DNA of 64,000 nucleotides from a virus: the IMG/VR virus record IMGVR_UViG_3300006139_000001. One strand, given 5' to 3'. Shown piece by piece: positions 11 to 39,118 of the stretch; position 1 is the stretch's first letter; each line of letters begins with the position of its first letter. The notes below the pieces were generated by a model that ran no database searches, was not told the DNA's origin, and was given only the letters and a program-made list of their open reading frames with translations. The position numbers were made by a program, and so were the translations under genes.

Positions 11-790
11 TTGGCTTCTTGGACGCATGAAATTTTAAGAATGGAATTCGCTGGTTCAGATAGATACCGTTTATCTGGTTCTACAAGCCAACGTGCAAAT
101 GCCTCGTTCTTTGCAAATAATGCCCTACCTTTGTTAAGAAAAATGAATCCAACTGCTACAAATGTTGGTGGATGGGATGAAAGTGAAATGCGTAGGTTCT
201 TAAACACTCGTGTTTATGAGGCATTACCATATAATTGGCAAGCTGCAATTAAACAAGTAAAAATTTCTGCTTCTGCTGGTAATCAGTCATCGGAAATCGT
301 TATATCAAATGACTATATTTATTTGGCTGCAAATAGAGAACTTGGTGGATGGACTTCTACTCCTTATATCAACGAAGGTGATGCAATTAGTTATTTCACT
401 ACTAATGCAAGCAGAATTAAATTCTGTGGATTAATAGTTGATGAAAATGCTCAGTTTATTACAGAAAGTTCAGACCCAACTCAGCTAACTTCTTATACTG
501 TAAAAGAGGGCGATATATGGATTAATACTAATAATTCAAGTGTTGGTTATTATTATATGACAGCCGATACAGTTGCAAAACATAGCCGAATTGGGTATAG
601 AGATATTTCATCTGCTGATAATATACCAGCTTCTAATGGCGGTATGTGGGTTCGTGCGTACTACTGGTGGGAGCGTTCTCCGAATGCCTCTACCTCCACT
701 AACTTTGTTTATGTCACCACCAACGGCAACCCGTACAACAACGGCAACGCATCTAGCGCCTATGGCGTGGCTTTCGGCTTCTCAATCTAA
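11..790 (+). CDS. DGR target protein. The C-terminal ~50 aa are encoded by the variable region; an in-frame ATG at 41 is a possible alternative start, and an in-frame stop at 4-6 confines the start to this window.
   Basis: ORF ends at 790 with ...WVRAYYWWERSPNASTSTNFVYVTTNGNPYNNGNASSAYGVAFGFSI. The last 142 nt are near-identical to the template repeat at 1782-1923. Asn/Tyr/Gly-rich C-terminus typical of C-type-lectin-fold variable proteins. Confidence 0.6.
   Translation: MASWTHEILRMEFAGSDRYRLSGSTSQRANASFFANNALPLLRKMNPTATNVGGWDESEMRRFLNTRVYEALPYNWQAAIKQVKISASAGNQSSEIVISNDYIYLAANRELGGWTSTPYINEGDAISYFTTNASRIKFCGLIVDENAQFITESSDPTQLTSYTVKEGDIWINTNNSSVGYYYMTADTVAKHSRIGYRDISSADNIPASNGGMWVRAYYWWERSPNASTSTNFVYVTTNGNPYNNGNASSAYGVAFGFSI
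642..783 (+). repeat. DGR variable region (VR)
   Basis: 142 nt aligning to 1782-1923 with 11 mismatches. Every mismatch sits at an adenine in the downstream copy (A to T/C/G at TR 1802, 1833, 1850, 1857, 1860, 1874, 1883, 1884, 1896, 1901, 1919). There are no non-A differences. Confidence 0.85.
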
Positions 791-829
791 TATCCCTTAA
801 AATCTTTAATTTGTTATAAAATACGGAAT

Positions 830-859
830 CGGCTACATTTGCGAGAGCAGGTGTAGCCG
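830..859 (+). promoter_or_regulatory. GC-rich hairpin ~40 nt downstream of the VR (cggctaca...tgtagccg, 8-bp stem). Candidate DGR homing-enhancing structure.
   Basis: Perfect 8-bp inverted repeat read directly. Its position relative to the VR end matches where DGR cruciform/hairpin elements occur. Confidence 0.45.
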
Positions 860-887
860 AAATTTATATGCACTGATAGGAGGATTT

Positions 888-1727
888 ATGTCAGTTCGAG
901 TAAATGATAGACATTTATCAGATATAGAATATGAGAACACATACGGAAAAATAAACGAATATATTTCTTTAAAATTAAAAGGATTGCCAAAAAGATACAG
1001 ATATTTTTTAGGAAAGCCGTTTAACAAAGTTCTTAATGACATCTATAGAGATATTATTGAACTTACAAATCTATATATGATTGGCAAAGGTAAAAGTATT
1101 GCTCGATATAGGCTGTGTGTAAAAATATTAAAGTCATTTGAAGAAGTTATCAGTTTATCTTATACATATTGGAATTTATCTGGGAATAACCAAAACAAAA
1201 TCAAATATGTTAATGCACGAGTTAGAATATTTTGGACTGACCTTATAAATAAGGAGATAGCATTAATCGTTGGTGTTATGGGTAAATGTAATTCCGATAA
1301 GAAAGTTGCAGTTAATATTCCTATTATGAAACCACATACAAAAAGTGAAATTAACGATGTTATATTTTTAAAAAAGTTATCTACTTTACAAGAGATAATT
1401 TATAAAAGAGCAATTCATATAAGTAAAGATTACCAAGATGCTAAAGTAGAAATGCTTGTGGAATTATCAAGAAGTGCATTATTTAATGCTACGCAAGGGA
1501 ACGATATTTTTGTCAATCAAGATGAACAGTTATACAGCAAGCGTAAAAATTTTATATCTAATGCACTTGGTGATTTATATGCTATGAATAGACCTATAAA
1601 GGAACTGAGTTTTAACGATATATTTAGCGAAGATGAATTAGAAAATGTATGTAATCTATCTACTGAATGTATTAAAATTTTGAAATCTATTCAAGAAACA
1701 GATAAGAGTTTATTTAATAAACAATAA
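888..1727 (+). CDS. Hypothetical protein between VR and TR (possible DGR accessory gene; larger than a canonical Avd)
   Basis: 279-aa AT-rich ORF with an RBS-like aggagg 7 nt upstream of the ATG. Its position between target gene and TR matches where avd normally sits. Confidence 0.4.
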   Translation: MSVRVNDRHLSDIEYENTYGKINEYISLKLKGLPKRYRYFLGKPFNKVLNDIYRDIIELTNLYMIGKGKSIARYRLCVKILKSFEEVISLSYTYWNLSGNNQNKIKYVNARVRIFWTDLINKEIALIVGVMGKCNSDKKVAVNIPIMKPHTKSEINDVIFLKKLSTLQEIIYKRAIHISKDYQDAKVEMLVELSRSALFNATQGNDIFVNQDEQLYSKRKNFISNALGDLYAMNRPIKELSFNDIFSEDELENVCNLSTECIKILKSIQETDKSLFNKQ

Positions 1728-1781
1728 GTAATAGATACGTTATGATTTGTGATAACTGCGTGTCGCCGTGTGGTAGGTGTC

Positions 1782-1923
1782 GTATGTGGGTTCGTGCGTA
1801 CAACTGGTGGGAGCGTTCTCCGAATGCCTCTAACTCCACTAACTTTGTTAATGTCAACAACAACGGCAACCCGAACAACAACAACAACGCATCTAACGCC
1901 AATGGCGTGGCTTTCGGATTCTC
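1782..1923 (+). repeat. DGR template repeat (TR). Non-coding RNA template; the ORF-track entries 1742-1936 and 1749-1955 are not genes.
   Basis: Adenine-rich (AAC-rich) copy of the VR. All VR/TR differences fall on TR adenines. Located immediately upstream of the RT gene. Confidence 0.85.
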
Positions 1924-2231
1924 TGAAAACAAGTAACCTGAACAAATCTGTTTAGACGCATAGTGTTCATATAAAAGGTGAAGATTTTAATAATAGAGTT
2001 AATTTTTTGGAGAAGGAAATTATAACGTTTCAGAAAACGATTTTCTGATAAATATACTTGTTCACATAACGAACAGCGCTTTATGACGGCGGCTATGATT
2101 GCAAAGCTGAAAAGTTTATTTTCAAATATGGGCTGAACTGTATATCATAAAGCCTATGCTTTGAAAGAGTTCTACGGATATACAAAATATAGAACCATAG
2201 TAGAGAGTCATTAGTTATTTTATGCAGGGAG

Positions 2232-3437
2232 ATGAGTGTTGATGACGTGAAGAAATTTAAAATAACACTTGAAGAAGCTATTACATATCAAAACTATTTT
2301 CATGCATTAAAAGAATGCAATAAAAATGTTAATTATAAATATAGTGTTCAAGAATTTGATTGTAATTGTGTTGTTCAAATTACCAACACTATAAATACAA
2401 TCTGTGATGGGCTAATCCCTAATGTAAAAAGTATAAACCCTATTACTATCTTTGAAAGAGGTAAGCAAAGAATTATAACTCCAATAGATATTAGTGATAG
2501 GATAACTCAAAAAGTATTATGCGATAATGTTTTAGTACCTTCTATTTGCCCTCATTTAATATTTGATAATGGTGCAAGTATGAAAAATAAAGGAACAGAT
2601 TTTGCTAGAAGGAGAGTTAATTCATTTATAGAAGATGCGAAGCGAGAGTATGGTGGCGAAAACTTATATGCTCTCGTTTTTGATTTTAAGAGTTATTTTG
2701 ACAGCATTCCTCACGAACAATGTTATAGAGTGTTAAAGAAATATCTATATGACGAAAGACTTGTTGACCTGACAATCGGCATTATTGAATCTTATAAATT
2801 GCGCAATATAGCAACAATAGAAGATGATGAACAGCGTAAAAAAGCTCTTGAAACATTGCATAATCATAAGGATGTCGGTATATGTCTTGGAAGCCAAATA
2901 TCTCAAATTATGGCGGTAGCCGTTCCAAATGAATTTGACCATTATATTAAAGATGTATTGAGATTAAAATATTATGAGCGTTATATGGATGATGGGATTA
3001 TTATTTTGAATGACAAAAATAAATTATTGCAACTTAAAATAGAACTTGGAGATTTGGCAAAAAAGTATGGTTTAAAATTTAATGATAAGAAAACCTATGT
3101 TACAAAGCTAACGAAAGGTTTTACATTTTTAAAAATAAAATACCATATTAATTCTGAAGGTAAAACAATTAAAAGGCTTGTGCGTTCTGGTATAGTGAGG
3201 GAACGTAGAAAACTAAAGAAGTTCAGGGTGAAAGTTGAGGATAGTGGTATGTCATTAGATGATGTGTATAATAACATACAGTCTTGGAATGCGCATTCTA
3301 AGATTGCAAAATGCTATACAACATCTAAAAATATGTTCGGATTATATAATGAGTATTTTGATGGGTATAAAATGACCCAAAAGTATTTTAAAGATAATCC
3401 AAATACAATACGTAAAAGAAAGGTGGTTAGAGTATGA
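2232..3437 (+). CDS. Reverse transcriptase (DGR-type)
   Basis: RT motifs YALVFDFKSYFDSIPH (motif 2), LGSQISQ (DGR-type motif 4), RYMDDGIIIL (YxDD catalytic motif). Positioned directly after the TR. Confidence 0.85.
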   Translation: MSVDDVKKFKITLEEAITYQNYFHALKECNKNVNYKYSVQEFDCNCVVQITNTINTICDGLIPNVKSINPITIFERGKQRIITPIDISDRITQKVLCDNVLVPSICPHLIFDNGASMKNKGTDFARRRVNSFIEDAKREYGGENLYALVFDFKSYFDSIPHEQCYRVLKKYLYDERLVDLTIGIIESYKLRNIATIEDDEQRKKALETLHNHKDVGICLGSQISQIMAVAVPNEFDHYIKDVLRLKYYERYMDDGIIILNDKNKLLQLKIELGDLAKKYGLKFNDKKTYVTKLTKGFTFLKIKYHINSEGKTIKRLVRSGIVRERRKLKKFRVKVEDSGMSLDDVYNNIQSWNAHSKIAKCYTTSKNMFGLYNEYFDGYKMTQKYFKDNPNTIRKRKVVRV

Positions 3438-4195
3438 AGTATTATAAGTTACTTAATGATAAAGAATTTGTTGGTGTTGGGACTTCTTTTGATTTAAGAA
3501 AATTCCAGCTAAAACATAGCATTCTTCTAACAAGTGATGATGAATCAGCTCAATATATTCAAATTAATGATAGATTATACAGAGATGATTGGTTTTCTCC
3601 TGTTATTACGGAGTTAATAAACTATACTACTGCTAAAATTATTGTAATTGAAAAAGAAGAATACGATACTTTATTTGAGGCAATAGAAACTGGTAAAGAA
3701 ATAGAAATTACAAATGACGAGCAAGATGTCCAAGAAGAATTGCCGCCAATTAACAAAGATGAGGAAGTTACTATTGAATATATTAAGGCAATTAAAAATG
3801 CAGAAATGAGTGCAATATGTAACAAGACTATCACGGGTGGTTTTGATGTTATTTTAAGTGATGGAGCAAGTCACCACTTTTCATTAACAATTCAAGACCA
3901 ATTAAATCTCATTACACTATCTTCTATGATTTCAGCAGGAGAAACAGTAATCCCTTATCACGCCGATGGTGAACTTTGTAAAGGCTATTCAGCCGAAGAT
4001 ATTACTACAATCATAAATACTGCCACTGCATTTAAAACATTTCATGTAACTTACTATAACTCGTTAAGAGCATATATTGAATCAATAGATGATATTTCTG
4101 AAATAAATAGTATTGTATATGGTATGGATATTCCAGAAAAATATCAGTCTGATATTCTAAAGACATTACTGATGAAAAAATTACAGGAAAATTAA
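3434..4195 (+). CDS. Hypothetical protein
   Basis: 253-aa ORF overlapping the RT stop by 4 nt (atga), i.e. translationally coupled. No recognisable motif. Confidence 0.4.
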   Translation: MKYYKLLNDKEFVGVGTSFDLRKFQLKHSILLTSDDESAQYIQINDRLYRDDWFSPVITELINYTTAKIIVIEKEEYDTLFEAIETGKEIEITNDEQDVQEELPPINKDEEVTIEYIKAIKNAEMSAICNKTITGGFDVILSDGASHHFSLTIQDQLNLITLSSMISAGETVIPYHADGELCKGYSAEDITTIINTATAFKTFHVTYYNSLRAYIESIDDISEINSIVYGMDIPEKYQSDILKTLLMKKLQEN

Positions 4196-4891: not shown

Positions 4892-6502
4892 TCAGTCAAT
4901 CTTCCCGATAAAGCGGTAGAATATCTCAACCTCTTGCTCCTTGCCACCTTCCGTTTCTACAGATTCATGTACTATAATCTTTTCGATTAAAGCATTGAGC
5001 AATGGTGCTGTAAGTTCTTGTGGGTCAGTGTACTGCTTTATAAGAGCAATCCACTTTTCCTTGTTACTTGCGTTCTCTTTTTCTTCTTGAAGTTTGGCTG
5101 ACAATGTTTCAACGAGTTCATGAAGTTCATCTTGCTCTTGCTGGTATTTAGCTGTTAGCATATTGAAGTTTCTCTCATTGATTTTGTCTTGTAACCTATC
5201 TTCATAAAGTTTCGCAAAGAGCGTATCTAACTCTCTTAGTCTTTTCTCAGATTTCTTTATATCTGAAATTGCTCTTTGCCGGGAGGAAGCAAACTCTTTA
5301 TCGCCACTTTTTATAAGGTATGCGAGTAGCTTATCTTCATCTTTCTGAGCTATAGCCGTCCAATAACGAATTCTTGATAAAACATACTCATACAATGTGT
5401 CGTAACGAATATAGTGCATTGAACAGAAAACTTTGCCCATTTGACCATATTTGCTACACGAGAAGTAACTATATGGGTTTTTGTTTTGAGTATTCGTACC
5501 AAACCTCATTGACCATCCGCAATCAGCACACTTAACCAATCCAGCGAATATTTGTTGTTGAGTGTTTTTCATGTTCCTACGTCTTGACTCTATCATACCT
5601 TGGATTTGTTTAAATTCTTCTTTGCCAATAATAGGTTCATGTGTATTCTCGATTCTTAACCATTCGCTTTTAGGTTTTCTCACACGTTTCTTATTCTTAA
5701 ACGAAATAGTACTTTGCTTATTGTGAATTGTATTGCCGATATAGGTTTCATCCTTCAGAATGTGTTTAACCTGAGCAATCGTCCACATATATCGTTTGTT
5801 TTCTGGCTGTCCATCAAAAATGTGTGCAAATGTGCCATCTTTCTGATAGTTAATCCAAGCAGGTGTTGGTACTTGCTCTTTAATAAGAGCCTTAGTGATT
5901 TTTGCCGCACCAATTCCACTTAATGCGTATGTGAAGATTTTCTCAATAATCCATTTGGTTTCTTCATCGACGATGAGCTTTCCAACTGAGTCTGGACTTT
6001 TCTTATATCCAATTGGTGCATAAGCACAATAGCGTTCGCCCATTGCAAATTTGGTTTGAAATGCCGCATGAACCTTTTTGCTAATGTCTCTTGCATACCA
6101 TTCGTTGATGATATTTTTAAATGGCGCAAATTCGTTATCGCCATTAAGACTGTCCACACTGTCGTTTATAGCAATGAAGCGCACATTATGGCTTGGAAAA
6201 TACAGCTCTGTATATTGACCAGTGAGGATATAATTTCTACCAAGTCGAGAAAGGTCTTTCACGATTACACAGTTAATCTTACCATCCTCAATATCTTGAA
6301 TCATACGCTGAAAATCTGGTCGGTCAAAATTTGTACCAGACCAACCATCGTCAACATATTCGTCATAGACATTTATATGGTGGTCAATAGCATACTTTCT
6401 TAGCATTTGGCGCTGAGTGATAATACTTGAACTATCACCTTGCAATTCATCGTCTCTACTCAATCGTAGATAGAGTCCAGCATCATAAGTGGGTTCTGTC
6501 AT
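4892..6502 (-). CDS. Large serine recombinase (serine integrase)
   Basis: N-terminal resolvase domain YLRLSRDD...GTNFDRP...VIVKDLSRLGRN, followed by a long recombinase and zinc-ribbon region (CADCGWSM...CSKY) and a coiled-coil C-terminus. 536 aa. Confidence 0.85.
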   Translation of the reverse strand: MTEPTYDAGLYLRLSRDDELQGDSSSIITQRQMLRKYAIDHHINVYDEYVDDGWSGTNFDRPDFQRMIQDIEDGKINCVIVKDLSRLGRNYILTGQYTELYFPSHNVRFIAINDSVDSLNGDNEFAPFKNIINEWYARDISKKVHAAFQTKFAMGERYCAYAPIGYKKSPDSVGKLIVDEETKWIIEKIFTYALSGIGAAKITKALIKEQVPTPAWINYQKDGTFAHIFDGQPENKRYMWTIAQVKHILKDETYIGNTIHNKQSTISFKNKKRVRKPKSEWLRIENTHEPIIGKEEFKQIQGMIESRRRNMKNTQQQIFAGLVKCADCGWSMRFGTNTQNKNPYSYFSCSKYGQMGKVFCSMHYIRYDTLYEYVLSRIRYWTAIAQKDEDKLLAYLIKSGDKEFASSRQRAISDIKKSEKRLRELDTLFAKLYEDRLQDKINERNFNMLTAKYQQEQDELHELVETLSAKLQEEKENASNKEKWIALIKQYTDPQELTAPLLNALIEKIIVHESVETEGGKEQEVEIFYRFIGKID

Positions 6503-12854: not shown

Positions 12855-13085
12855 TCATTTCTTATTCGCTACACCCAATGACCGTTCACAAAAGTCAATA
12901 ATATCTTGAAGCCTCTCGTGTTCAGTTTTTGTGTTGTCTTTTGCCTTTTCGAGAACAACTCCGCAAATTGCCTTGCTACCAGCAAGTAAACCGGAGTCTC
13001 TGACTTTTTGCATTTGCTCTCTAATTTCTTTGTTAAGCTGCTTTTCTTGGCTTTTATTCATGTGATACCTCTTATTGTTGCTCAT
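12855..13085 (-). CDS. Hypothetical protein
   Basis: 76-aa ORF only. Confidence 0.3.
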   Translation of the reverse strand: MSNNKRYHMNKSQEKQLNKEIREQMQKVRDSGLLAGSKAICGVVLEKAKDNTKTEHERLQDIIDFCERSLGVANKK

Positions 13086-13533
13086 CGTACATCTTTGCGG
13101 TATTTATAAAAATCTGTTTAAGCTGAGAAGTCATATTAAACCGAGTCGTATTCACATCAATGCTTTTGAGAAGATTGCCATCATTATGTCGCATAGAAGA
13201 TGCTTTCCAATCACAGAACATCTCAACGAGGTCAACAAGAGTCATGTCATTGATGCCTTTTTCAAAATGCTCTGGATGATGTCTATAATTAGCATAATGA
13301 TGTTGTAATGCTGGTTTCATTTCTTCAAGAAATTGCATATATTCTTCGCTGCCATATGTAGTTTCTGCAAGTTTTGGAGTGTACTCAGCAAAGATTTCTA
13401 TTTCCGGACTTTCAAGTTTAAGTTTATCATGGTCTACTGCTCTGGTAATAAGTTTGCTTACAAATACCCTAATGACTTCTCTGACTTTTTCAATATGCTT
13501 GATTGTCTCAACTTGGCACTCCGCAATAGTCAT
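13072..13533 (-). CDS. Hypothetical protein (all-alpha; possibly an NTP-pyrophosphohydrolase-like fold)
   Basis: 153-aa ORF with no definitive motif. Mentioned because a MazG-like enzyme would be expected if the PurZ hypothesis were true; MazG identity is not established. Confidence 0.3.
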   Translation of the reverse strand: MTIAECQVETIKHIEKVREVIRVFVSKLITRAVDHDKLKLESPEIEIFAEYTPKLAETTYGSEEYMQFLEEMKPALQHHYANYRHHPEHFEKGINDMTLVDLVEMFCDWKASSMRHNDGNLLKSIDVNTTRFNMTSQLKQIFINTAKMYDEQQ

Positions 13534-13739
13534 AAGTTGCCTCCTATTTTATATACTTGTTGTTGAGCCTAACAGCGTGTTCGTTGCCTTATGCAATCAC
13601 TGTTGCCATCAAATGATGTCTCAGGGTTACTGGTTTGCTCAACCCTACTGGAAACCCTTTTTCGGATATTTTGTGTGTGGGAAACAAATAAAACAGCAAT
13701 TTTATTTGCATTCATTTGTTTTTCTGATTTACACAATCT

Positions 13740-13788
13740 ATTATAACATACTCCGCTCAATCTGTCAATGCTTTTTCTGATTTAATTC
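13740..13788 (-). promoter_or_regulatory. Consensus sigma-70/sigma-A promoter (TTGACA-17-TATAAT, minus strand) preceded by the conserved AATTAAATCAGAAAAA element
   Basis: rc(13763-13768)=TTGACA, 17-nt spacer, rc(13740-13745)=TATAAT. Conserved motif at 13771-13788. A second motif copy (variant) at 13721-13735. Confidence 0.6.
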
Positions 13789-15002
13789 TTCAATTCAATA
13801 AGATAATGGATAGTACATTGTTCTTCCTTATAGACAATTATTTCATCATTACGGAGCATACTTCCTTCGTGGGCATGTAAGCAATTTGCGCCAGGACAAT
13901 TTCTCTGTAGTGCTTCGTAGTTGAAATTATAATACTTGCTATCAAAAGAATACACATCATACGGCTTTCCATATGCGACATCCATTAAAGCCATGAACCC
14001 TGAGTTTGAACTACCTCTTGCCCAATAGCTACCAGATAGACTTGTGTAACCAAGTGACTTTCTTGCCTTTGGCGCATAATAAATACCATAACCAAACATC
14101 TTGCCAGTAATCACAGCATTTGTTGGTTTAAGCATCAAACCACTATTGATAATTGACCACCAGTTCTCATTGCGACTACCATGGAATAGTAACTTAGTAT
14201 CTTTGATATTATTTGCTTTTACAAATTCATCGTAACGTTTCTGAGTTTTAAGATTTTTAACTCTCCACGCTTTATAGAACTTATCTGCACAAGAACCAAG
14301 TGCCGCTTTAATTGTTGCAATGTCGTTGTTGTCGCATTCCTCAAATTCAAGACCAAGCTGTTCAAGGATAGTATAATCACATTTTTCAGTTTCTTTTTGC
14401 TCAGTCTCGTCGATAACCTGATGCTGTACTACCTGACCTCTCATAACGTCAAGAAGGTCTTGCTCTTTATCAATAATCTTCGCAAAATCATCTTTCGAGT
14501 TTGCCAGATAATACTTAACATTACTCATCTTGCGAGGAATCGTAACGAATAACTTTAGTAGAATGTCATTGAATTCGTCAACTGTTTTTGCATCAAGCAA
14601 ACTGGTCAAAATATTCTGCGCTTCATCAACCATTGCTTGTGTAACCTTATTGGATGAAATTGTATAGTTATCACTAATGGCTTTCTTAGCCATACTCTGC
14701 AATCTTTCAACAATCTCTGCGATTACTTTATTTTCGATTTCTCTGTATTTGCTATCAGTCTTAGGCTTCTCAACTTGTATTAAATCTTCAACTAAATCAC
14801 TTTGGTCAACATATCCTTTGCGTATTTTCTCGTTATATTTTGAATCCCATTGGCTCATAGGATATGTTCGGCGTTGTGGACTGCTCCCTACTCTACCGTA
14901 TTCGGCAGTCCAACTATCGCCATTAGGAATCTGTTTGTAATACTTATTGTTATTTGCAGAAGCCGTAACCATAACTAAATAGCGTGGTTTATAATCTGCC
15001 AT
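13782..15002 (-). CDS. Poly(ADP-ribose) polymerase homolog (WGR domain, helical regulatory domain, PARP catalytic domain)
   Basis: N-terminal WGR-like NNKYYKQIPNGDSWTAEYGRVGSSPQ. Catalytic H-Y-E triad intact: LLFHGSR, GKMFGYGIYYAP, RNDEIIVY. 406 aa. Confidence 0.8.
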   Translation of the reverse strand: MADYKPRYLVMVTASANNNKYYKQIPNGDSWTAEYGRVGSSPQRRTYPMSQWDSKYNEKIRKGYVDQSDLVEDLIQVEKPKTDSKYREIENKVIAEIVERLQSMAKKAISDNYTISSNKVTQAMVDEAQNILTSLLDAKTVDEFNDILLKLFVTIPRKMSNVKYYLANSKDDFAKIIDKEQDLLDVMRGQVVQHQVIDETEQKETEKCDYTILEQLGLEFEECDNNDIATIKAALGSCADKFYKAWRVKNLKTQKRYDEFVKANNIKDTKLLFHGSRNENWWSIINSGLMLKPTNAVITGKMFGYGIYYAPKARKSLGYTSLSGSYWARGSSNSGFMALMDVAYGKPYDVYSFDSKYYNFNYEALQRNCPGANCLHAHEGSMLRNDEIIVYKEEQCTIHYLIELKN

Positions 15003-15014
15003 AACAACAACTCC

Positions 15015-15452
15015 TTATAGTACATAAACTACAATCTCGATGTCTGAATCCTCAAACACATCCTCGATGACATCCACAACTCTATCCCAATCCAGCTTAT
15101 CAAGTCCTGCGCCAATTCTTGGCATAGCCAGCTTGGTAATATCCAAATTCTCACACTGTTCTCTCATATCAACAAGAGTTTCGTACAAGGAGTCGTATGT
15201 CGGCTTATGAAAACATCTTGCCTTAGTAACAAGGTTGAATACATTATCAACTAGTAGCGCTTCTCCTACATAGCCATACTTCTCTCCGTCCGCAATGGGA
15301 TAATCTCTGTACAGCTTGAAGCGCATATTGTACACTTCATCAAACTTCTTGGCAATGCCAGCACCAAGGGCAAAATCGCCAGAAATACAATGTGCAAGGT
15401 AATATCCCTGCGGTGCGGTAAACAAATCGCCGTTTTTCTCAGTAAAAGTCAT
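15015..15452 (-). CDS. Macro-domain protein (ADP-ribose binding/hydrolase, MacroD/DarG-like)
   Basis: YYLAHCISGDFALGAGIAKKF and MPRIGAGLD macro-domain motifs. 145 aa. Immediately downstream of the PARP gene. Confidence 0.8.
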   Translation of the reverse strand: MTFTEKNGDLFTAPQGYYLAHCISGDFALGAGIAKKFDEVYNMRFKLYRDYPIADGEKYGYVGEALLVDNVFNLVTKARCFHKPTYDSLYETLVDMREQCENLDITKLAMPRIGAGLDKLDWDRVVDVIEDVFEDSDIEIVVYVL

Positions 15453-15477
15453 AATTCATTCCTCCAAAAATATTTTG

Positions 15478-15780
15478 TTACTGAACTACATTGAAACTTC
15501 TCATGATTTGTGGATTTCTAAATTCTACAAATACTACTTCTGGTTCTTTCTTTGGTTTTATTTCTGCCTTTGCAAAGAACAACTTGACATATGTTAAGAT
15601 AACATTTGCAGTCGAATATAGAATTGCAACTGCGCCATCTCCATAGATATTATCAATGTAATATTCTTTGAAAGGATTGCAGAATAGTGAATTATCAATA
15701 GCCTCTTTTGGTGTTGCTGCCGAGACACGATATAACCGGATATTCTGCTCTAACACTCTAACAACTAAATATTCGCTCAT
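15478..15780 (-). CDS. Hypothetical protein
   Basis: 100-aa ORF overlapping the polymerase stop by 4 nt. Confidence 0.3.
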   Translation of the reverse strand: MSEYLVVRVLEQNIRLYRVSAATPKEAIDNSLFCNPFKEYYIDNIYGDGAVAILYSTANVILTYVKLFFAKAEIKPKKEPEVVFVEFRNPQIMRSFNVVQ

Positions 15781-18700
15781 ATGTTATCTACCTTTTCGTA
15801 CTTTGTTAGCCAAATTTCAGAAGTGCCAGGAATAGGCTCGTATGTACCATCTTCCAATCTTCTTGACTTTGGTTTTTTGTTTTGGCTTGATACACGGATA
15901 ATGTCACACTTTTCAAGTTTGTTTTTGTTGTAGGTTCTTTTATCAACCTTAACTTCAAGCATAGTACCATTTTTCAATGAATACACTTTTAATCTTGGTG
16001 AGTACTTTGTATCTACAGACATTATTGCTAACATCCTACTATATCTACTATCCGCAATATCGAGATAGCCAAGATGTTCTGTCTGGGCTTTAACCTTTTC
16101 CTTCAGGGTTCTTTTTTTGGATTCTATGTGCTTTGCAAGTTCCACTAAAAGACCTCTTGTATGTATCTTTGCGAACATCTTATCTGTTTCTCGTTCTGCA
16201 AATGGTCTTACAATATCATGTTTGATACCAAGGCTATCCAACTTATCTTTTTTGATTTGAACTTTACCACCAAATTCATCAAATAAACTTGAAAGTCTTA
16301 ACAGATAGTTCGCATCTCCAAATTCCTCAAAGAAATCAAGTTCAATAAGGATATTTAGTTGCCTGGAATTGAGACTCGTTTTCTCTTTGAGGTCATAGAG
16401 CAAATCAATGAAAGTGTTATAGCTGTTATCTTTTAATGCGTAGATTTCGTTCGCAACATTCGCATTCATAAACTTAATTGAAGAAATACCTTTGAATATC
16501 TGGTTTGTTTCCTTGTCAAAGCTATATTTTGCGATTGAATGTCTGAACTTAATTGGCGAAATCGTTATTCCACGCTTTTTTGCATAATCAATAATTGATA
16601 AGCTCTTTTCTTCTTTCCCCTCGAAGATATTCAGTGCTGTTGTAATAAATTCGAGAGGATAATAATACCTTAGATAGCCACAAATATAACCAATCCAAGA
16701 ATAAGGGTCTGCATGATTTTTTGAGAATAGATAAGCACTTGCATCTTCAATAACCTTGATGAAATTCACAATCAGTTTGTCTGATTCTTCTGATGAAACA
16801 CCATACTTCTCCATCATTGTTTTTGTAAAACCGGCTTTGATTTTCGGAATAAATTTCTCAGTACCAGTTTTCTTAGCAAATCCACGACGTACTATATCGG
16901 CTTCGCCCATTGTGTAACCACAAAATGAATGTAAGAACTCAATAATTTGTTCCTGGTAAACAAGATAGCCAAGGGTTGGCGCAAGAAAGTTGTTTAAAGC
17001 CTTATGCCCATTATCTTGATAAATACCTTGTGCAAGTTTATCACGGTACGACTCACCAGCCGGTCTGATAGCTCCGTTACCGATTGAAAGCAAATCCATA
17101 TATGATAAATTCTCATTACCTTCACGAATTCGCTTAATAGTTTCGTCGCTTAATAGTTGTCTTAAATATTGTGTAGCACTTTGAGACTCCCATTGGAATA
17201 TCATCGTAGTATCATCCCTAATGCTTTCCCATACTGCTGCATCGTCTGCTGGAATGTTATCCGGTGTTGCAAATGGAATACCAGCCATATCACAAGTTTT
17301 GTAAATTAGACCGATATTATCAAGACCAAGAATATCCAATTTGACGAAATTTAGAGAGTCAATCTCTTTCATGTTCAGAAGTGATATTGGATATTCATCG
17401 GAAGAAGTAGTAAAAGTGCCAAACCACTCATCAACCGGAATTGGAGAAACAACGCATCCCGCCGGATGATTACCAACAGAAACAACAACACCATTTACCA
17501 AATCAACATACTTAAACAGTTTCTTATACTGTTTTCTTAGTGATTCTTCATCTGTCTCAACTTGGTCACAAATTGCATCAACTTCTTTTAATGGAATCTC
17601 TAATGCTCTACCAATGTCACGAATAGCACCTTTTAGTGCAATAGTGTTGAACGTAACGATGTCACAGCAATACAATCCTTGCTTACCATACAGATAATCT
17701 TTAACAGCTTTTCTGTCCTCAGATAGCCAGTCAGAGTCAACATCTGCCAAGCTAACACGTTCCTTGTTCATGAAGCGCTCAAAGTTTAGGTTGTACTTAA
17801 CACTATCAATCTCCGTAATATATAGTAGATATGCGATAATACTGCCAGATACAGAACCACGAGAATAGCCGTATTTGATATTTAGCTTGCGCATCTCAGA
17901 TTTATAGTTTTCTTCAAGCAGCATAAAGTCAATAGCGCCATTGTGCTTGTAAACATCATATTCATAGTGAATTCTATCAAGATATTCCTGATAGTTTGGA
18001 TAATTCATTATTCCACGGCTTTTTACGCCTTCGTTTATTTTCTGCTTGAATACTTCTTCCGAATTCTCATACAATTTAGGGTATTTGGGTGAGTAATCCA
18101 GTTTGAATTCTTCGACCATATCTGCCATTACATTGGTGTTGTTAATTGCTTCGTAGACAACATCCATAGGTAAAGCATTTTGTTTTTTGAACGCTGTAAC
18201 TAATTGCTCAAACGACTTAAATGTTAAATCCCAATCGTCCTCATTTGCAAAGTGAACACCTTTTGCTTTTTGCAACATCAATCTACCATCAATGTGTTCA
18301 TCGTTTAAAGCATGTGTATCAGTTCCGGCAATAAGCGGTACTCCCATGTCTAAATGTAGCTGGTAGAGTAACTTATTATATTCTGCCTGGTCTTTGCAAT
18401 TGTGATGTTGGATTTCCAAAAAACATCTATGCTTATTCTTCTGAATAAAATTCAGAAATTTCTCTTTTGCTGAAGGTGTTCCGCTATACAAAACACCACC
18501 AAGACAAGCAGAGGTAACTATAATGTTATCAGATGTGGCAAAAAGTTCTTCAAACGAAATTCGTGGCATATAGTAGAAATGAAAATCATCTCTACAGAAT
18601 GATTTTGAAACAAGTTTGTTTAACTCTTTTACACCATCATAATTTTTCGCAATTAAGACAATATGGTAATTGTCTCTGCCTTTTTTATATCCTTCATCTT

Positions 18701-19085
18701 TAATTGTGTCTTTCTCAATAGGCACATCTTCTGATGTCTCTATATCTCTTGCGTATTGTATACCATCACTTGTTTCCCACGTTTCAAAAAATTGTATCTT
18801 TGTACCACCAAAAATACTTATCGCACTATATAGATGGGGCTTATTTTCGCTATCTTCTGTTAAATAAGCCTCAATAGCGTGGATATATTTCATACCACAA
18901 GATTCTATGTACTCTTTCTTTTTTAACCAGGCAAACAAAGAACCGTGTTCACTAAAAGCAAACGCTTTCATACCAAGTTTCTCTGCAACGTCAACATAAT
19001 CGTGAAAATCCGTGATACTATCAATATTTGTAACACCATTACTCAACATCGTATGAATATGATAAGGAGTATAGTTTTCAACCAT
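15777..19085 (-). CDS. DNA polymerase III alpha-type (DnaE-like) replicative polymerase with N-terminal PHP domain
   Basis: 1102 aa. PHP motif YHIHTMLSNG...AFSEHGS...HAIEAY. Polymerase palm/fingers region length consistent with the C-family. Confidence 0.8.
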   Translation of the reverse strand: MVENYTPYHIHTMLSNGVTNIDSITDFHDYVDVAEKLGMKAFAFSEHGSLFAWLKKKEYIESCGMKYIHAIEAYLTEDSENKPHLYSAISIFGGTKIQFFETWETSDGIQYARDIETSEDVPIEKDTIKDEGYKKGRDNYHIVLIAKNYDGVKELNKLVSKSFCRDDFHFYYMPRISFEELFATSDNIIVTSACLGGVLYSGTPSAKEKFLNFIQKNKHRCFLEIQHHNCKDQAEYNKLLYQLHLDMGVPLIAGTDTHALNDEHIDGRLMLQKAKGVHFANEDDWDLTFKSFEQLVTAFKKQNALPMDVVYEAINNTNVMADMVEEFKLDYSPKYPKLYENSEEVFKQKINEGVKSRGIMNYPNYQEYLDRIHYEYDVYKHNGAIDFMLLEENYKSEMRKLNIKYGYSRGSVSGSIIAYLLYITEIDSVKYNLNFERFMNKERVSLADVDSDWLSEDRKAVKDYLYGKQGLYCCDIVTFNTIALKGAIRDIGRALEIPLKEVDAICDQVETDEESLRKQYKKLFKYVDLVNGVVVSVGNHPAGCVVSPIPVDEWFGTFTTSSDEYPISLLNMKEIDSLNFVKLDILGLDNIGLIYKTCDMAGIPFATPDNIPADDAAVWESIRDDTTMIFQWESQSATQYLRQLLSDETIKRIREGNENLSYMDLLSIGNGAIRPAGESYRDKLAQGIYQDNGHKALNNFLAPTLGYLVYQEQIIEFLHSFCGYTMGEADIVRRGFAKKTGTEKFIPKIKAGFTKTMMEKYGVSSEESDKLIVNFIKVIEDASAYLFSKNHADPYSWIGYICGYLRYYYPLEFITTALNIFEGKEEKSLSIIDYAKKRGITISPIKFRHSIAKYSFDKETNQIFKGISSIKFMNANVANEIYALKDNSYNTFIDLLYDLKEKTSLNSRQLNILIELDFFEEFGDANYLLRLSSLFDEFGGKVQIKKDKLDSLGIKHDIVRPFAERETDKMFAKIHTRGLLVELAKHIESKKRTLKEKVKAQTEHLGYLDIADSRYSRMLAIMSVDTKYSPRLKVYSLKNGTMLEVKVDKRTYNKNKLEKCDIIRVSSQNKKPKSRRLEDGTYEPIPGTSEIWLTKYEKVDNI

Positions 19086-19097
19086 ATTACACTACCT

Positions 19098-19904
19098 CTA
19101 CTTCCATGTTGTGGTTTTTGCATACTCACAACTATTTCTGAAATTACAGAGATTGGTGCAATAGAAATAATCCAGTGTTACATCATAATCTGTTTCTTGC
19201 TCAATAGCATGAATCGTATCAACAAACCACTTTACCGCTGCATCATACTCATCTTTCTTAAATGGAATTGTTGCAAATTTGCCACCATCTTTGAAGTGAT
19301 TCCAAGTGATTTCTTTAGGAAACTCGCCATACTTCTCCATGACTGCGTATGAGTATAAGTACATCTGTTTCTTGTAGTTTTCAAAACTATGCTTTGACTT
19401 TGCCTTAACATCGCCATTTAGCTTAAATGGATATTCGCTTGACTTATTATCTACAACGACAATTTTGCCATCTCGTTTATCTCTAAGCAATAAGTCTATG
19501 TAACCAACAAAATCATAGCCTTCTAATTTGAATTTGACCTCTAGCTCAACGCCAAGAATCTCATAGTCGTTTAGCCAACCAAAGTCAACGTTTGCGAAAT
19601 AATCTGCACAAGTTTCAAATGTCTTATCCATCGTAGACTTTCTAGTTTTGTAGAAAACATTGTTATCAAAATTATCTACATAATACTGCGATGCTTCATC
19701 TGGCGTTAATTCACCATTGAAAATCATCGCAAGAATTTCATGAACAAAACTGCCGACTTCTGCATAGAAATTGCCCTCAGATAAATACTCGTTATCATCA
19801 TTGACAATGTAGTTTAAGTAAAATTCGTACTTGCAATGCTCAAAAGAAGTTAGTCTTGAATAAGACCATCGCATTTTGTCAATATCTTCTTTGTATTCGC
19901 ACAT
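19098..19904 (-). CDS. PD-(D/E)XK nuclease, Cas4/RecB-like, with Fe-S cysteines
   Basis: N-terminal CKYEF plus C-terminal CTNLCNFRNSCEY cysteine cluster. Central ELEVKF...GYIDLLLRDK...VVVDNKS nuclease core. Confidence 0.65.
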   Translation of the reverse strand: MCEYKEDIDKMRWSYSRLTSFEHCKYEFYLNYIVNDDNEYLSEGNFYAEVGSFVHEILAMIFNGELTPDEASQYYVDNFDNNVFYKTRKSTMDKTFETCADYFANVDFGWLNDYEILGVELEVKFKLEGYDFVGYIDLLLRDKRDGKIVVVDNKSSEYPFKLNGDVKAKSKHSFENYKKQMYLYSYAVMEKYGEFPKEITWNHFKDGGKFATIPFKKDEYDAAVKWFVDTIHAIEQETDYDVTLDYFYCTNLCNFRNSCEYAKTTTWK

Positions 19905-22824: not shown

Positions 22825-23442
22825 TTATTCTTCCTTTTCAAGTAAATACGTTGATTCTAAATCTGCTTCAAAAATCGCTAGAACAAGCGGATATTTTTTA
22901 ATAGCAAGAGATAGAGTGTTCCAATTTTCTTTTGCCTCTGTGAAACCCATATGCCATCTAATTGCATAGCGCTCAATTGGTTTCAGCTTAATGAATTCCT
23001 CAATCATCATCACAGACTTCTCGCCATGACCATATGGAATCTTGTCATCAACTGTATAACCAGGCACAGTTTCCCAATCGTATCTGCCAGCGCTATCAGA
23101 CTTCTTACCATGGTCGCTGTAGATTTTCTTGTTCTTCATCTCAACGGCATAGTAGTTAGACTTGCAAATATCGTGAAGAAGGGCAGCAATAATAATGCTT
23201 TCTCGCCCAACCTCGCCTAATCTATCTGCCCAAACAGGGTCATTGAGTTTATCTAAGAGGCAATCGGCTACATTCAAACTATGTTCCACTAAGCCACCCT
23301 CATGGCACGAATGAAATCTCGTGCTTGCAGGAGCGGTATAGAAGTCTGACTTTCTGAGATATTCAAGAAGTTTATCCATACCGTCCCTATCGCACTCAGA
23401 CAGCATAGCTTCAAATCTTTCAATATAATCTTGATTTGCCAT
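22825..23442 (-). CDS. HD-domain phosphohydrolase (dNTP hydrolase candidate)
   Basis: H...HD metal-binding pattern: FHSCHEGGLVEHSL...AALLHDICK. 205 aa. Confidence 0.7.
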   Translation of the reverse strand: MANQDYIERFEAMLSECDRDGMDKLLEYLRKSDFYTAPASTRFHSCHEGGLVEHSLNVADCLLDKLNDPVWADRLGEVGRESIIIAALLHDICKSNYYAVEMKNKKIYSDHGKKSDSAGRYDWETVPGYTVDDKIPYGHGEKSVMMIEEFIKLKPIERYAIRWHMGFTEAKENWNTLSLAIKKYPLVLAIFEADLESTYLLEKEE

Positions 23443-24711: not shown

Positions 24712-25568
24712 TTAATAATTTGTAATTAGTACCTCAACACTACTGTTCGCAGATTTATCCTTGGTTTGGTAGTTGCAATTTTTATAGTCCATATTTAGAT
24801 AGTGGACATTGTACTTTTTGCACCATTGCTTTAGAATATCATTAGATTTGCCTTTATGTTCTAACACATTTGAAAGCGCCCATTTATATTCCGCTGCATT
24901 CAGTTCATCCAGATAATCAAGGAGTTTCTTTTCGTAGTCGGCAGACCATTTACAAAAATAGTCTCTTTCATATGCGCCGACAGTAATCAGATATGGTGGG
25001 TCAACATACACAAAAGCATTCTCAGGATTACACAACGAGCCTATATCTACATCAACGAAGTCCTTAGATAGAAATAAAATGTTGCTTTTATTTTTGACTT
25101 CTATATAGGATTTTAGCTTTTCTCTTAGTTGCGGACTAAAGTAGCTTCGTCCTGCGCCAGATGGCATATTGTACTCACCTTTTGAGTTAAAAGCTATCTG
25201 ATAGTTAAAAGCGTGTGTTAGTAGGCAATATAGGAGAACTGCATTTTCTCTGCTGGTCATTGCACCTAAATGCTCATTGTAATATTGTCGCAAATTCAGG
25301 AAACCTTGTTTGTTTTCTTTTGAGAGTTGCCATCTATTAATGACATTATCTACATCTGCAACAAAGTCGCTATCCAGGTTTTTGAAGATATTAACCAGCG
25401 GAGCAGATTTCTCGTTGTATATGTATTTGTTTGCTTCTGTATTAAATGTTACTTCGCCACTCCCCCGAACAAATCTACAAATGTATCAATGTCTGACGGG
25501 AAAAGAGGAAGTATTTGTGGTAATAGTTTGTACTTTGCTCCAATGTAGTTGAATGGATTCTTGTACAT
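24712..25568 (-). pseudogene. DNA adenine methyltransferase (Dam family) interrupted by a frameshift at a G5 tract (plus-strand C5 at 25462-25466)
   Basis: ATG at 25568 opens MYKNPFNYIGSKYKLLPQILPLFPSDIDTFVDLFGG, then a stop. With six instead of five G the frame continues ...FGGSGEVTFNTEANKY... into ORF 24712-25293, which carries the DPPY motif (VDPPYLITVGAYERDY). Preceded by an RBS and a consensus promoter. Confidence 0.75.
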
Positions 25569-30365: not shown

Positions 30366-30752
30366 TCAATCTTTATCAGTGATGCAAAAATTCTTTAAAT
30401 TATCTAGTATATGAAAACGAATAAGGCATAAAATCATTTGGTATATATCTCCTTCGCAACTATCCCATTCAAAATAAACTGAATTTTCTCTTACCATTTC
30501 AATTAGTTCATCAATTTTATCTTCAAAACATTCTGATGCCTCTGCTCCTGTATCGGTTGTTACCCAAGTGTCGTATGCCGTTTCTTCTCGCCTAATTCGT
30601 GGTTCTAACTCAGTTTTAATGCGGAACTCATAATGTTGTCTAGTGTCTTGCTCTTTTTTAAGTTTTATATTTAACTCTCGAATTATATCCCGTTGTTCAT
30701 CAATTTTGTATTTAAGTTGGCGTATGTATTCTTCATATTCTTTTTCGCTCAT
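30366..30752 (-). CDS. Hypothetical protein (coiled-coil N-terminus)
   Basis: 128-aa ORF. Confidence 0.3.
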   Translation of the reverse strand: MSEKEYEEYIRQLKYKIDEQRDIIRELNIKLKKEQDTRQHYEFRIKTELEPRIRREETAYDTWVTTDTGAEASECFEDKIDELIEMVRENSVYFEWDSCEGDIYQMILCLIRFHILDNLKNFCITDKD

Positions 30753-31546
30753 ATTTTACCTCGCAACACTGATAACAAATAGTTATCGAGATAGTTTTCT
30801 AGTATTTTGTCGGCAGATTTCAATATTTCATCATTGCTATTATCAAATAATTCTTCTGCTATTCCGCCACCTATTGCACATAGAGTATCTGTATCACATT
30901 TCAAACTAAAAACATTTCTTATAAATTCTGTGTAGCTATTTGCTTCATAAACACATCTAATTGCAACTGGCACACTCCCTTGGCATGTTTCATTCCAAAG
31001 ATAGTCGTGTTTGATTTCGTTAATGCTTAAAGCTGCACTATATGTATATTTGTCTTTTGGATAATGTGAAATAGTATACTGTAAAATATCATCTCGTGTA
31101 TATCCATTTTTCGCCATCCAAATACACATTGCTGTTATGATTGCACCTTTCAATCCTTCCGGATGGTTATGTGTGCATTCTGCGGATTTTTTAGCATACT
31201 CAATTACTTTATCTATTGTTTTAAAATGGTCTGCGACAAATGATACTCTCATAGCAGAGCCATTACCATAACTTTCATATGGTTTATCTTCTTGTTCATC
31301 AATCCATTCAGCAAAACGACTACCATAACCAACATCACGATATTTCAATCCAAAGAACTGATATGATTGTGCAAATGGAATATTATGTTCAATCGCATAT
31401 TTTGTAGCAATGCTCATTACTGTGTCATCTGTAAACTTGCATTTATCTGATAATAGTGCAGCGGTTTTGTCATTAAAACCTTCTGGTTTTTTGAATTCAT
31501 ATTGAGAACCAATAATGTCGCCAAGTATTGCTCCTTTAATTGCCAT
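30749..31546 (-). CDS. ADP-ribosylglycohydrolase (ARH/DraG family)
   Basis: N-terminal GAILGDIIGSQYEF and the family signature YGNGSAMRVS. 265 aa. Confidence 0.75.
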   Translation of the reverse strand: MAIKGAILGDIIGSQYEFKKPEGFNDKTAALLSDKCKFTDDTVMSIATKYAIEHNIPFAQSYQFFGLKYRDVGYGSRFAEWIDEQEDKPYESYGNGSAMRVSFVADHFKTIDKVIEYAKKSAECTHNHPEGLKGAIITAMCIWMAKNGYTRDDILQYTISHYPKDKYTYSAALSINEIKHDYLWNETCQGSVPVAIRCVYEANSYTEFIRNVFSLKCDTDTLCAIGGGIAEELFDNSNDEILKSADKILENYLDNYLLSVLRGKI

Positions 31547-33625: not shown

Positions 33626-33646
33626 CGTAAACGCCCCCTTTCTTGG

Positions 33647-33892
33647 TCATTTTTTTGTCAAATACATCGAAAATCCGTATTTGAGAGGCACAATTTTAAT
33701 ATATCGTGTTGTGTAGTGCCGAAGGATAGTACAAATCTCAAAAACATTTTCGTTATAGCCAATACCATATTGAATAACATCTTTTTCTTTATTCGCCGCA
33801 ATGTACTGAACTATTCGACCTGCTTTATACCATGATTTATTGTCAAACGACTTCTCGTTGATGGATAATTTCATACGCTTCTTTCCAATCAT
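33647..33892 (-). CDS. Hypothetical small protein
   Basis: 81-aa ORF. Confidence 0.25.
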   Translation of the reverse strand: MIGKKRMKLSINEKSFDNKSWYKAGRIVQYIAANKEKDVIQYGIGYNENVFEICTILRHYTTRYIKIVPLKYGFSMYLTKK

Positions 33893-34966: not shown

Positions 34967-34977
34967 TGTTTTCGCCT

Positions 34978-35322
34978 TTAGCTTAAAAGTGCTTCAAAAT
35001 TGGCAATAATCTTTTCATTGCCAGTGCGCAATTCGCCAAGAGAACCATTGGTTGACTGAAGGCTTGCAATCTTCTCAACATTTCTTTCGCATTCTTCCGC
35101 AATCTCTGAATTGGCGGCTTTCAGTTCATCAATAGTGGTACGAATAATATTTACAGCATTAGCCGATTTCTGCTGTAATGTTTCTAATGCGGTTTGTGAT
35201 TTAGTAAGTCTCATTTTGTTATTCTCCTTGTTTTTGTTTATAGTAAAAGTAGTAGCAATAGCCACCACATTGAGTAGTTGATAGCCAAGTAAACAGCCAA
35301 TCCAACTACAAAAATGTACCAA
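34978..35322 (-). CDS. Hypothetical coiled-coil protein (start likely internal, at MRLTKSQ)
   Basis: ORF only. Confidence 0.25.
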   Translation of the reverse strand: MVHFCSWIGCLLGYQLLNVVAIATTFTINKNKENNKMRLTKSQTALETLQQKSANAVNIIRTTIDELKAANSEIAEECERNVEKIASLQSTNGSLGELRTGNEKIIANFEALLS

Positions 35323-35337
35323 ACATATTTCATATCA

Positions 35338-36648: not shown

Positions 36649-36660
36649 TAATCTTTCTCC

Positions 36661-36888: not shown

Positions 36889-36914
36889 AATACTCCTTTC
36901 TTGACTTCATATAC

Positions 36915-39112: not shown

Positions 39113-39118
39113 CCTCCT

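Follow-up and report, generated by a model that had tools for sequence, protein, structure and literature searches.

Can a phage both write and erase ADP-ribose with the genes of a single operon? This question is raised by two adjacent genes on the minus strand of IMG/VR virus record IMGVR_UViG_3300006139_000001, a 64,000-nt stretch of viral DNA, the whole of which is here called the window. The upstream gene (15015-15452) encodes a 145-residue TARG1-type macrodomain protein, here called the macro protein, and the downstream gene (13782-15002) encodes a 406-residue PARP2-like ADP-ribosyltransferase with WGR, helical and catalytic domains in that order. An initial annotation, made from the letters alone, had proposed both open reading frames (ORFs), and both proved to be real, at the coordinates proposed and on the minus strand. 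From the domain architecture, the active sites, the operon structure, the conservation of the pairing and the genomic context, which includes a Clostridia phage as the likely source, we consider it rather likely, with a probability of about 0.6, that the two genes form a phage writer-eraser ADP-ribosylation module in which a DNA-break-sensing PARP is expressed together with replication genes and is reversed by the phage's own erasers.

The phage PARP resembles a minimal PARP2

To establish what kind of enzyme the 406-residue protein is, it was compared with domain models, with sequences in the PDB and with predicted and solved structures. Both the catalytic domain and the WGR domain, as they had been named initially, passed their Pfam cut-offs: the PARP catalytic model (PF00644) matched residues 240-405 with an E-value of 8.4e-25 and 87.9 bits against a cut-off of 26.7, and the WGR model (PF05406) matched residues 7-68 with 25.2 bits against a cut-off of 22. 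The protein also matched PHROG 23333 (E 9e-59). The single sequence found PARP1 and PARP2 in the PDB at E ~1e-11, and a profile built from 20 phage PARPs spanned the WGR, helical and catalytic domains of PARP2 without a break (profile positions 7-404 on chain positions 26-486, E 4e-36). An AlphaFold model of the protein reached a predicted local distance difference test score (pLDDT) of 90.8 and a predicted template modelling score of 0.85. It was made from 80 sequences that included representatives at 50% identity, which share ~40% identity with the PARP; a shallower alignment of 30 sequences with >82% identity gave a pLDDT of 46, and that model was discarded. The best Foldseek matches of the retained model were PARP2 (6x0l_P, E 4e-22) and PARP1 (4dqy_C, TMq 0.70), and the top-ranked PARP2 and PARP1 structures were both bound to DNA double-strand breaks. 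The architecture of PARP2 and PARP3 that had been claimed for the protein was borne out by both the profile and the Foldseek comparison.

The WGR domain (14799-14984, minus strand; approximately residues 7-68) was modelled as a beta-sheet plus a helix with pLDDT >90. Its signature reads Y35-G36-R37, a YGR in the place of WGR, and residues 17-22 read NNNKYY. G36 and R37 were invariant in all 80 sequences, and position 35 was Y in 75, F in 3 and W in 2. Even among representatives with ~40% identity, N17, N19, K20, Y22, G36 and R37 were nearly invariant. The helical, regulatory-like domain (14253-14750, minus strand; approximately residues 85-250) was delimited from the alignment and the model. 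This segment aligned with the helical domain of PARP1 and PARP2 in both the phmmer and the profile comparison, and the model was all-helical from H92 to H241, from which we conclude that the fold of the helical domain is present in the predicted structure.

The ADP-ribosyltransferase (ART) catalytic domain (13785-14252, minus strand) covers residues 251-406. Its histidine-tyrosine-glutamate (H-Y-E) triad, which had been reported as intact, withstood a proper alignment with no loss of Glu or His: H274 in LLFHGSR (14181-14183), Y308 in GYGIYYA (14079-14081) and E387 in NDEIIVY (13842-13844), all on the minus strand, aligned with H862, Y896 and E988 of PARP1. Around them, G275, K315, S316 and Y319 are the equivalents of PARP1 G863, K903, S904 and Y907. 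These seven residues were unchanged in 79 of 79 complete relatives, and when the comparison was extended down to 38% identity (80 sequences), six of the NAD+-site residues remained invariant and S316 nearly so. As judged from its sequence, this minimal PARP2-like enzyme is intact and apparently catalytically competent.

The macro protein belongs to the TARG1 branch

The upstream protein had been described as a macrodomain of the MacroD or DarG kind. It is a macrodomain, and the second half of this description held in part. Against the human TARG1/OARD1 structures 4j5r and 2eee, phmmer gave a full-length match (residues 4-145, E 1.2e-27), and PHROG 335 was matched at E 1.5e-27; the Pfam Macro model scored 21.4 bits, marginally under its cut-off of 22. 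The DarG structures 5m31 and 5m3i were matched at E ~1e-4, far behind TARG1, and Af1521 merely at E 0.15-0.28, so the MacroD assignment was dropped. In PADLOC, the macro half of DarG was matched at E 3.9e-15 over model positions 26-143 of 329. The DarT-binding domain at the C-terminus of DarG was absent from the 145-residue protein, and the NCBIfam model antitoxin_DarG scored 45.9 bits against a cut-off of 250. No DarT gene adjoins the macro gene, its neighbors being the PARP and a 100-residue ORF (orf100), neither of which had a PADLOC match. The likeness to DarG is thus restricted to the macrodomain. By these sequence comparisons, the macro protein is a TARG1-type member of the TARG1/DarG branch and neither a MacroD protein nor a DarG antitoxin.

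Two residues point to an enzymatic function. K77 in LVTK (15222-15224) and D118 in GAGLDKL (15099-15101), both on the minus strand, aligned with the TARG1 catalytic dyad K84/D125, which makes the protein a plausible eraser. Among 78 partner macros of the same PARP clade, the lysine was retained in 75 and an Asp or Glu in 46. The phage protein is a single-domain macro with the Lys84/Asp125 dyad, like human TARG1/OARD1 (C6orf130) and Fusobacterium mortiferum TARG1, but unlike these it shares an operon with a PARP, and many of its counterparts in the clade have lost the Asp. With DarG and the anti-DarT2 phage protein AdfM it has the macrodomain branch and the catalytic lysine in common; in contrast to DarG, it is paired with a PARP. 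Homologues in Fusobacterium phages, at 44% identity, carry an OARD1-like annotation.

The macro-PARP pair is conserved across changing surroundings

To determine whether the two genes belong together, 183 loci with 108 distinct PARP sequences were collected from IMG/VR, GTDB genomes and protein collections. A co-oriented macro gene was found immediately upstream of 87 of the 108 distinct PARPs, where the count includes four non-orthologous, MacroD-type macros and 11 cases in which a homing endonuclease alone separates the two genes. The junction was tight: of the 77 loci that the first viral scan yielded, 70 had a spacing between -16 and +13 nt. The pair was kept where all other flanking genes differed, and a DnaE homologue occurred in the upstream flank of just 50 of 80 related loci. 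The two proteins diverged to different extents, with the macro falling to ~27-40% identity and the PARP staying at 61-88%.

The exceptions to the usual layout were informative. An upstream MacroD-type macro with a GGG motif was present in lineages L074, L077, L082 and L158, and in L075 a MacroD-type macro (Pfam Macro, 29.2 bits) lies two genes downstream of the PARP. Gaps of ~850 nt between the macro and the PARP, seen in 11 lineages, correspond to free-standing GIY-YIG/NUMOD homing endonucleases; this was confirmed for L044 and L079, and the inserts of L032, L036, L072 and L082 are homologous to those two. The insert of L137 was unrelated to them and had no Pfam match. Because non-orthologous macros substitute for the usual one and only selfish insertions are tolerated between the genes, the PARP appears to need a macrodomain partner, and we regard this as strong comparative evidence. 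The functional link that had been proposed for the pair was thus upheld, and the distribution of the sequences indicates that the pairing is real and not due to chance. A third component hidden in the ~850-nt gaps was considered and rejected, since the gaps hold the homing endonucleases. As a side observation, the macro-PARP junction resembles a recurrent homing site.

A further arrangement was seen in L070, a 290-kb viral contig with two PARP paralogues of 415 and 406 residues (L070:3198-7224). Each of them is preceded, in the usual position of the macro, by an ORF of 183-185 residues that matched nothing in Pfam or NCBIfam and may be an unrecognised alternative partner.

The pair is encoded behind the replicative polymerase

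The genes were next placed in their transcription unit. On the minus strand, a DnaE-type replicative DNA polymerase (15777-19085; PHP, Pol III alpha, fingers and HhH domains by Pfam) is followed by orf100 (15478-15780), which overlaps the DnaE stop by 4 nt, then after a 25-nt gap by the macro gene and after a 12-nt gap by the PARP gene, so that no gap in the run exceeds 25 nt. The 12-nt junction (15003-15014, minus strand) was read from the sequence. Strong Shine-Dalgarno sites precede both the macro and the PARP gene, and that of the PARP contains the macro stop codon TAA (cta-TAAGGAG-ttgttgtt-ATG). The macro had initially been said to follow the PARP directly, but transcription reaches the macro gene first. 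Because it lies upstream on the same message, it is expected to be translated ahead of the PARP. The pair had also been placed next to the replicative polymerase, which is correct in that all the genes belong to one tightly packed run, but DnaE lies two genes upstream.

A perfect sigma-70-type promoter (13740-13768, minus strand; TTGACA, 17 nt, TG-TATAAT), with 12 of 12 consensus matches and an extended -10 element in the promoter scan, begins 14 nt past the PARP stop. The PARP is therefore taken to be the final gene of its unit. A consensus scan, which may miss promoters, found no strong promoter directly upstream of the macro gene. Two neighbors were examined as possible members of the module and set aside. 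For orf100, no match was found in Pfam, PHROG, PADLOC or NCBIfam, and a homologue was absent from all 80 related loci; it is probably a variable filler gene outside the module. The downstream DUF5662 gene occurred in 5 of the 80 loci and is cut off from the PARP by the consensus promoter. A leader of ~190 nt separates this promoter from the DUF5662 gene (13545-13768, minus strand), and an Rfam search of 13400-15900, with the leader included, matched no family.

A second candidate eraser is encoded in the window

A gene that did not figure in the initial account of ADP-ribose genes in the window (30749-31546, minus strand) encodes a 265-residue ARH3-like ADP-ribosylglycohydrolase, a candidate second eraser. 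Its product matched Pfam ADP_ribosyl_GH (PF03747) with E 1.3e-26 and 94.3 bits against a cut-off of 26.2, and all 11 of its PDB matches were ARH3 (best E 3.2e-12). The motifs GDxxG..E17, TDDT (residues 39-42) and DTDT (residues 218-221) were recognised by eye; TDDT, DTDT and the N-terminal Glu presumably form the ARH3 metal site. Homologues are rare, being present in 10 of 50,697 phage records. The huge phage LR756500, which carries the closest PARP in that database, has an ARH3-like homologue 13 kb from its PARP, and no macro was seen within ~5 kb of that PARP. The ARH3-like enzyme of the window probably belongs to the same ADP-ribose cycle as the PARP. A viral-contig scan seeded with the ARH3-like protein returned nothing. 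Genes for PARG (DUF2263), NADAR, Nudix and NAD-salvage proteins were not seen among the ~60 window ORFs scanned with Pfam and PHROGs, a set that did not include every small ORF.

A proposed writer-eraser cycle

These observations suggest the following model, in which DNA-dependent activation, the choice between poly- and mono-ADP-ribosylation, the chemistry of the acceptors and the way in which the erasers share the work are all drawn by analogy from PARP1-3, TARG1 and ARH3, and in which we infer the targets and the purpose of the PARP. A DNA break or end would be recognised by the WGR domain, and as in PARP2 and PARP3 the ligand would most likely be a nick or terminus that carries a 5'-phosphate. 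DNA binding would unfold an autoinhibitory helical domain, and the H-Y-E domain would then attach ADP-ribose from NAD+, probably as chains. We know of no HPF1-like partner for a phage PARP, and the acceptors are therefore expected to be Glu and Asp residues on the PARP itself and on nearby phage or host proteins of DNA metabolism; DNA terminal phosphates are a further possible acceptor. The macro protein, translated just ahead of the PARP from the same message, would cleave the target-proximal linkage and free mono-ADP-ribose or whole chains, which would reset the targets and limit both self-modification and the drain on NAD+. Making the eraser first may guard against runaway NAD+ use. The ARH3-like glycohydrolase would shorten or remove chains.

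Several steps have precedents. WGR-PARPs of Herpetosiphon and C. difficile make poly(ADP-ribose) in vitro, and HaPARP is DNA-dependent (PMC8120803, PMC5966428). TARG1 reverses the mono-ADP-ribosylation of Glu and Asp made by PARPs (PMC4245714), and it also reverses the ADP-ribosylation of DNA ends made by PARP3 (PMC8385414).

A number of findings weigh against this model. TARG1-like macros occur in 215 phage records and PARP in 16, and therefore the macro must also have uses that are independent of a PARP. No macro was detectable within ~5 kb of the distant PARPs of L002, L087 and L161-L167, of Cellulophaga phage phi4:1 or of Xanthomonas phage XacN1, and therefore a dedicated eraser is not obligatory across the family; the fixed pairing rule is specific to the present PARP clade. 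These macro-less lineages showed no alternative partner family common to them. In the PARP itself, the WGR tryptophan is replaced by Tyr in most members, and the Pfam model PARP_reg gave no match to the helical region at E up to 0.01, so that autoinhibition by this domain is suggested by the fold similarity of the model alone. The H-Y-E triad is necessary yet insufficient for the synthesis of poly(ADP-ribose) chains: PARP3 has the triad but is described as a mono-transferase (PMC8385414), and the triad-bearing PARP4 is also termed a mono-transferase (PDB molecule names). On the eraser side, the Asp125 equivalent is N, G or A in 32 of the 78 partner macros, which may use a DarG-like, Lys-only mechanism or may merely bind ADP-ribose. 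The ARH3-like gene lies 16 kb from the PARP, and its co-occurrence with a PARP was documented in one other genome.

Alternative explanations for the locus

An alternative that is doubtful, and would alter the substrate rather than the logic of the module, is that the phage PARP acts mainly on DNA and ADP-ribosylates 5'-phosphates at nicks or genome ends, as PARP2 and PARP3 do in vitro. Phage DNA ends or intermediates of replication and recombination would be capped against host exonucleases or premature ligation, or host DNA breaks would be marked, and the macro, aided by the ARH3-like enzyme, would uncap the ends for ligation or packaging. This fits the ligase genes, for DNA or RNA, that repeatedly adjoin phage PARPs (the C-terminus of LigA in L149, RtcB in L162 and an ATP ligase in phi4:1) and the NAD+-dependent DNA ligase in the window.

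It is unlikely that the two genes are linked by chance and work apart, with the macro as a counter-defence protein that, like AdfM of chimalliviruses, frees phage DNA of ADP-ribose added by host enzymes of the DarT2 type, and the PARP as a separate transferase for host takeover, comparable to T4 Alt, ModA and ModB. The matches to the DarG macrodomain in PADLOC and the PDB are in line with such a role; TARG1 and DarG are alike in structure and catalytic lysine (PMC8385414, PMC8120803), and the lysine alone is retained in 29 partner macros, as in DarG. SCO6735, a macrodomain of the TARG1/ALC1 branch, is reported to cleave thymidine-linked ADP-ribose on DNA (PMC9411070), and the defeat of DarTG2 by a phage macrodomain has been demonstrated by experiment (PMC13309987). 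The many PARP-less phages with TARG1-like macros also speak for it. However, separate functions do not account for an almost obligatory adjacency, with overlapping junctions, in 87 of the 108 PARPs, for the survival of the pair amid changing flanks, or for the exchange of a TARG1-type for a MacroD-type macro at the same position. Thoeris and Sir2 had initially been named as further defence systems that the phage might counter; none of the observations hints at either, although no search aimed at them was made.

We consider it improbable that the pair is a toxin-antitoxin-like module for abortive infection or superinfection exclusion by a temperate phage, in which the PARP would act as the toxin, responding to the DNA ends of incoming phages by draining NAD+ or modifying essential targets, and the macro would be the antitoxin. 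With its eraser gene in front and its compact layout of two genes, the pair resembles the toxin-antitoxin pairs of an ART or sirtuin with a Macro protein that are known from phages (PMC9503650), and a quickly evolving macro beside a conserved PARP recalls conflict systems. A large serine recombinase in the window and relatives of the locus in Ruminococcus and Lacrimispora isolates make a lysogenic or plasmid-like state plausible. Nevertheless, no strong promoter was seen in front of the pair, which starts 25 nt past orf100, so its expression looks tied to the lytic replication genes; it sits in a module for replication and nucleotide metabolism and not in a moron or defence hotspot. The PARP, moreover, had no PADLOC match and shows strong conservation (61-88% identity), not diversification.

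Finally, a role in RNA repair or metabolite clean-up, with the macro hydrolysing small molecules like ADP-ribose-1''-phosphate or O-acetyl-ADP-ribose and the PARP modifying RNA ends, is very improbable: the window does hold a polynucleotide kinase (PNK)-like protein, an RNA ligase and a CCA-adding enzyme, the PARP follows a CCA-adding enzyme in phi4:1 and RtcB in L162, O-acetyl-ADP-ribose is deacetylated by TARG1 (PDB names; PMC8120803) and Iyer et al. argue for soluble ADP-ribose derivatives as the substrates of most phage macros (PMC9503650), but the order of WGR, helical and catalytic domains is the architecture of DNA-break-activated PARPs, the ARTs named as modifying RNA ends are PARP10, PARP11, PARP15 and TRPT1 (PMC8385414), and the RNA-repair genes of the window lie ~17-24 kb off while the module stands among DNA-replication genes.

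Relation to known PARPs and their erasers

The writer-eraser module proposed here has relatives in both eukaryotes and bacteria. The phage PARP has the order of WGR, helical and ART domains of human PARP2 and PARP3 and keeps their H-Y-E triad and the equivalents of K903, S904 and Y907. In contrast to them, it is phage-encoded, lacks an N-terminal extension, zinc fingers and a BRCT domain, is ~80-170 residues shorter with trimmed ART loops and has the YGR motif; identity in the structural alignments was 17-20%. By their descriptions, HaPARP of Herpetosiphon aurantiacus and CdPARP of Clostridioides difficile CD160 are likewise compact WGR-(helical)-PARP proteins with an H-Y-E triad and a logic of writer plus eraser, and the poly(ADP-ribose) that they synthesize in vitro is reversed by their PARGs (PMC5966428, PMC8120803). 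The phage differs from these bacterial PARP-PARG systems in that its erasers would be a TARG1-type macro directly upstream and a distant ARH3-like enzyme. In C. difficile CD160, the locus tags of PARP and PARG are far apart (QEW_4625 and QEW_4455; PMC5966428).

PARPs are rare in phages (16 of 50,697 records). Those of Cellulophaga phi4:1 (gp031), Xanthomonas XacN1 (ORF414) and Klebsiella FBKp34 (gp111) have a similar length, share 24-31% identity with the present PARP over at least 97% and belong to PHROG 23333. None of the three has an adjacent macro, and FBKp34 alone has a macro-like gene, 2.4 kb upstream. The present clade is set apart by at least 60% mutual identity, contigs of 100-290 kb, Clostridia-linked records and a fixed macro-PARP operon. 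It is widespread, with 691 clusters (50% identity) at E 1e-30 and many contigs >100 kb. Viral-contig scans seeded with the distant PARPs P0328 and P0252 returned nothing, and the individual contigs retrieved for distant representatives were mostly too short to be informative.

Phage PARPs were listed in 2014 (PMC4245714), a 2021 paper noted them in jumbo phages (PMC7824862), and in 2022 PARP was counted as one of the common ART families of viruses (PMC9503650). GenBank and JGI annotate the homologues as PARP (poly(ADP-ribose) polymerase). The 406-residue protein is thus a new member of a known family. Within the limited literature that was accessible, neither a conserved operon of a TARG1-type macro and a PARP nor a phage that combines PARP, TARG1-like and ARH3-like enzymes was found to have been described. 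The conserved operon seems to be undescribed, although it is akin to known writer-eraser pairs.

Genomic surroundings and the source phage

The window is a region of replication, recombination and nucleotide metabolism, with genes for a primase, DnaB, a PD-(D/E)XK nuclease, a Sak single-strand annealing protein, Dam, dUTPase, NrdD/NrdG, ThyX and a guanylate-kinase-like protein. Among phage proteins, the closest relative of its DnaE is that of Clostridioides phage pCD1602_4 (49.7% identity), followed by those of large Bacillus siphoviruses. A megablast search of 13000-19500 against the phage collection gave no match, so this part has no close sequenced relative there. Related contigs, of up to 290 kb, were classed as viral. 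The isolate assemblies of Ruminococcus sp. YE282 (NZ_FMUV01000013) and Lacrimispora amygdalina src4 (NZ_OAOF01000022) contained relatives, as did many metagenome-assembled genomes of Clostridia. The source is likely a large phage that infects Clostridia of the gut or rumen, the host being deduced from these relatives.

Other genes in the window describe this phage further. The RNA-repair set (PNK-like protein, RNA ligase, CCA-adding enzyme and further nucleotidyltransferases) and the NAD+-dependent DNA ligase are encoded at 32606-40171 and 54743-56743 on the minus strand. A PurZ-like gene (43483-44694, minus strand; PHROG 1211, E 2e-53) and a gene for an HD-domain protein (22825-23442, minus strand) are present, and in a related locus a gene for a MazZ-like dATP/dGTP diphosphohydrolase adjoins the PARP (L161:6440-7327); such phages may swap adenine for 2-aminoadenine (Z-genome). 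A reverse transcriptase (RVT_1, 2232-3437) is flanked by DUF6273 and DUF4376 proteins within 11-4195 on the plus strand, with a second DUF6273 protein at 41752-42423 on the minus strand, and these genes may constitute a diversity-generating retroelement with its target genes. The large serine recombinase (4892-6502, minus strand), with Resolvase, Recombinase, zinc ribbon and DUF4368 domains, suggests a temperate, integrating or plasmid-like lifestyle. Four DNA methyltransferase genes on the minus strand, one Dam-type, one MT-A70 and two C5-cytosine (24712-25293, 34403-34966, 48472-49236 and 53181-54089), suggest heavy self-methylation against host restriction.

Significance

To our knowledge, a physiological role has yet to be established for any PARP of viruses or bacteria. 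A 2021 review described bacterial PARPs as known solely from in-vitro assays. Genetic work may be possible, because members of the present clade are found in cultured Clostridia, at least in Ruminococcus sp. YE282 and Lacrimispora amygdalina. A compact PARP that senses DNA would be a handy structural model for allosteric activation, and the locus bears on the proposal that eukaryotic PARPs descended from phage or bacterial conflict systems. If DNA were the main substrate, the phage would provide the first physiological role of PARP-type DNA-end ADP-ribosylation in any organism. The system could thus reveal what PARP signalling does outside eukaryotes, and it could be used to test whether the ADP-ribosylation of DNA ends is physiological.

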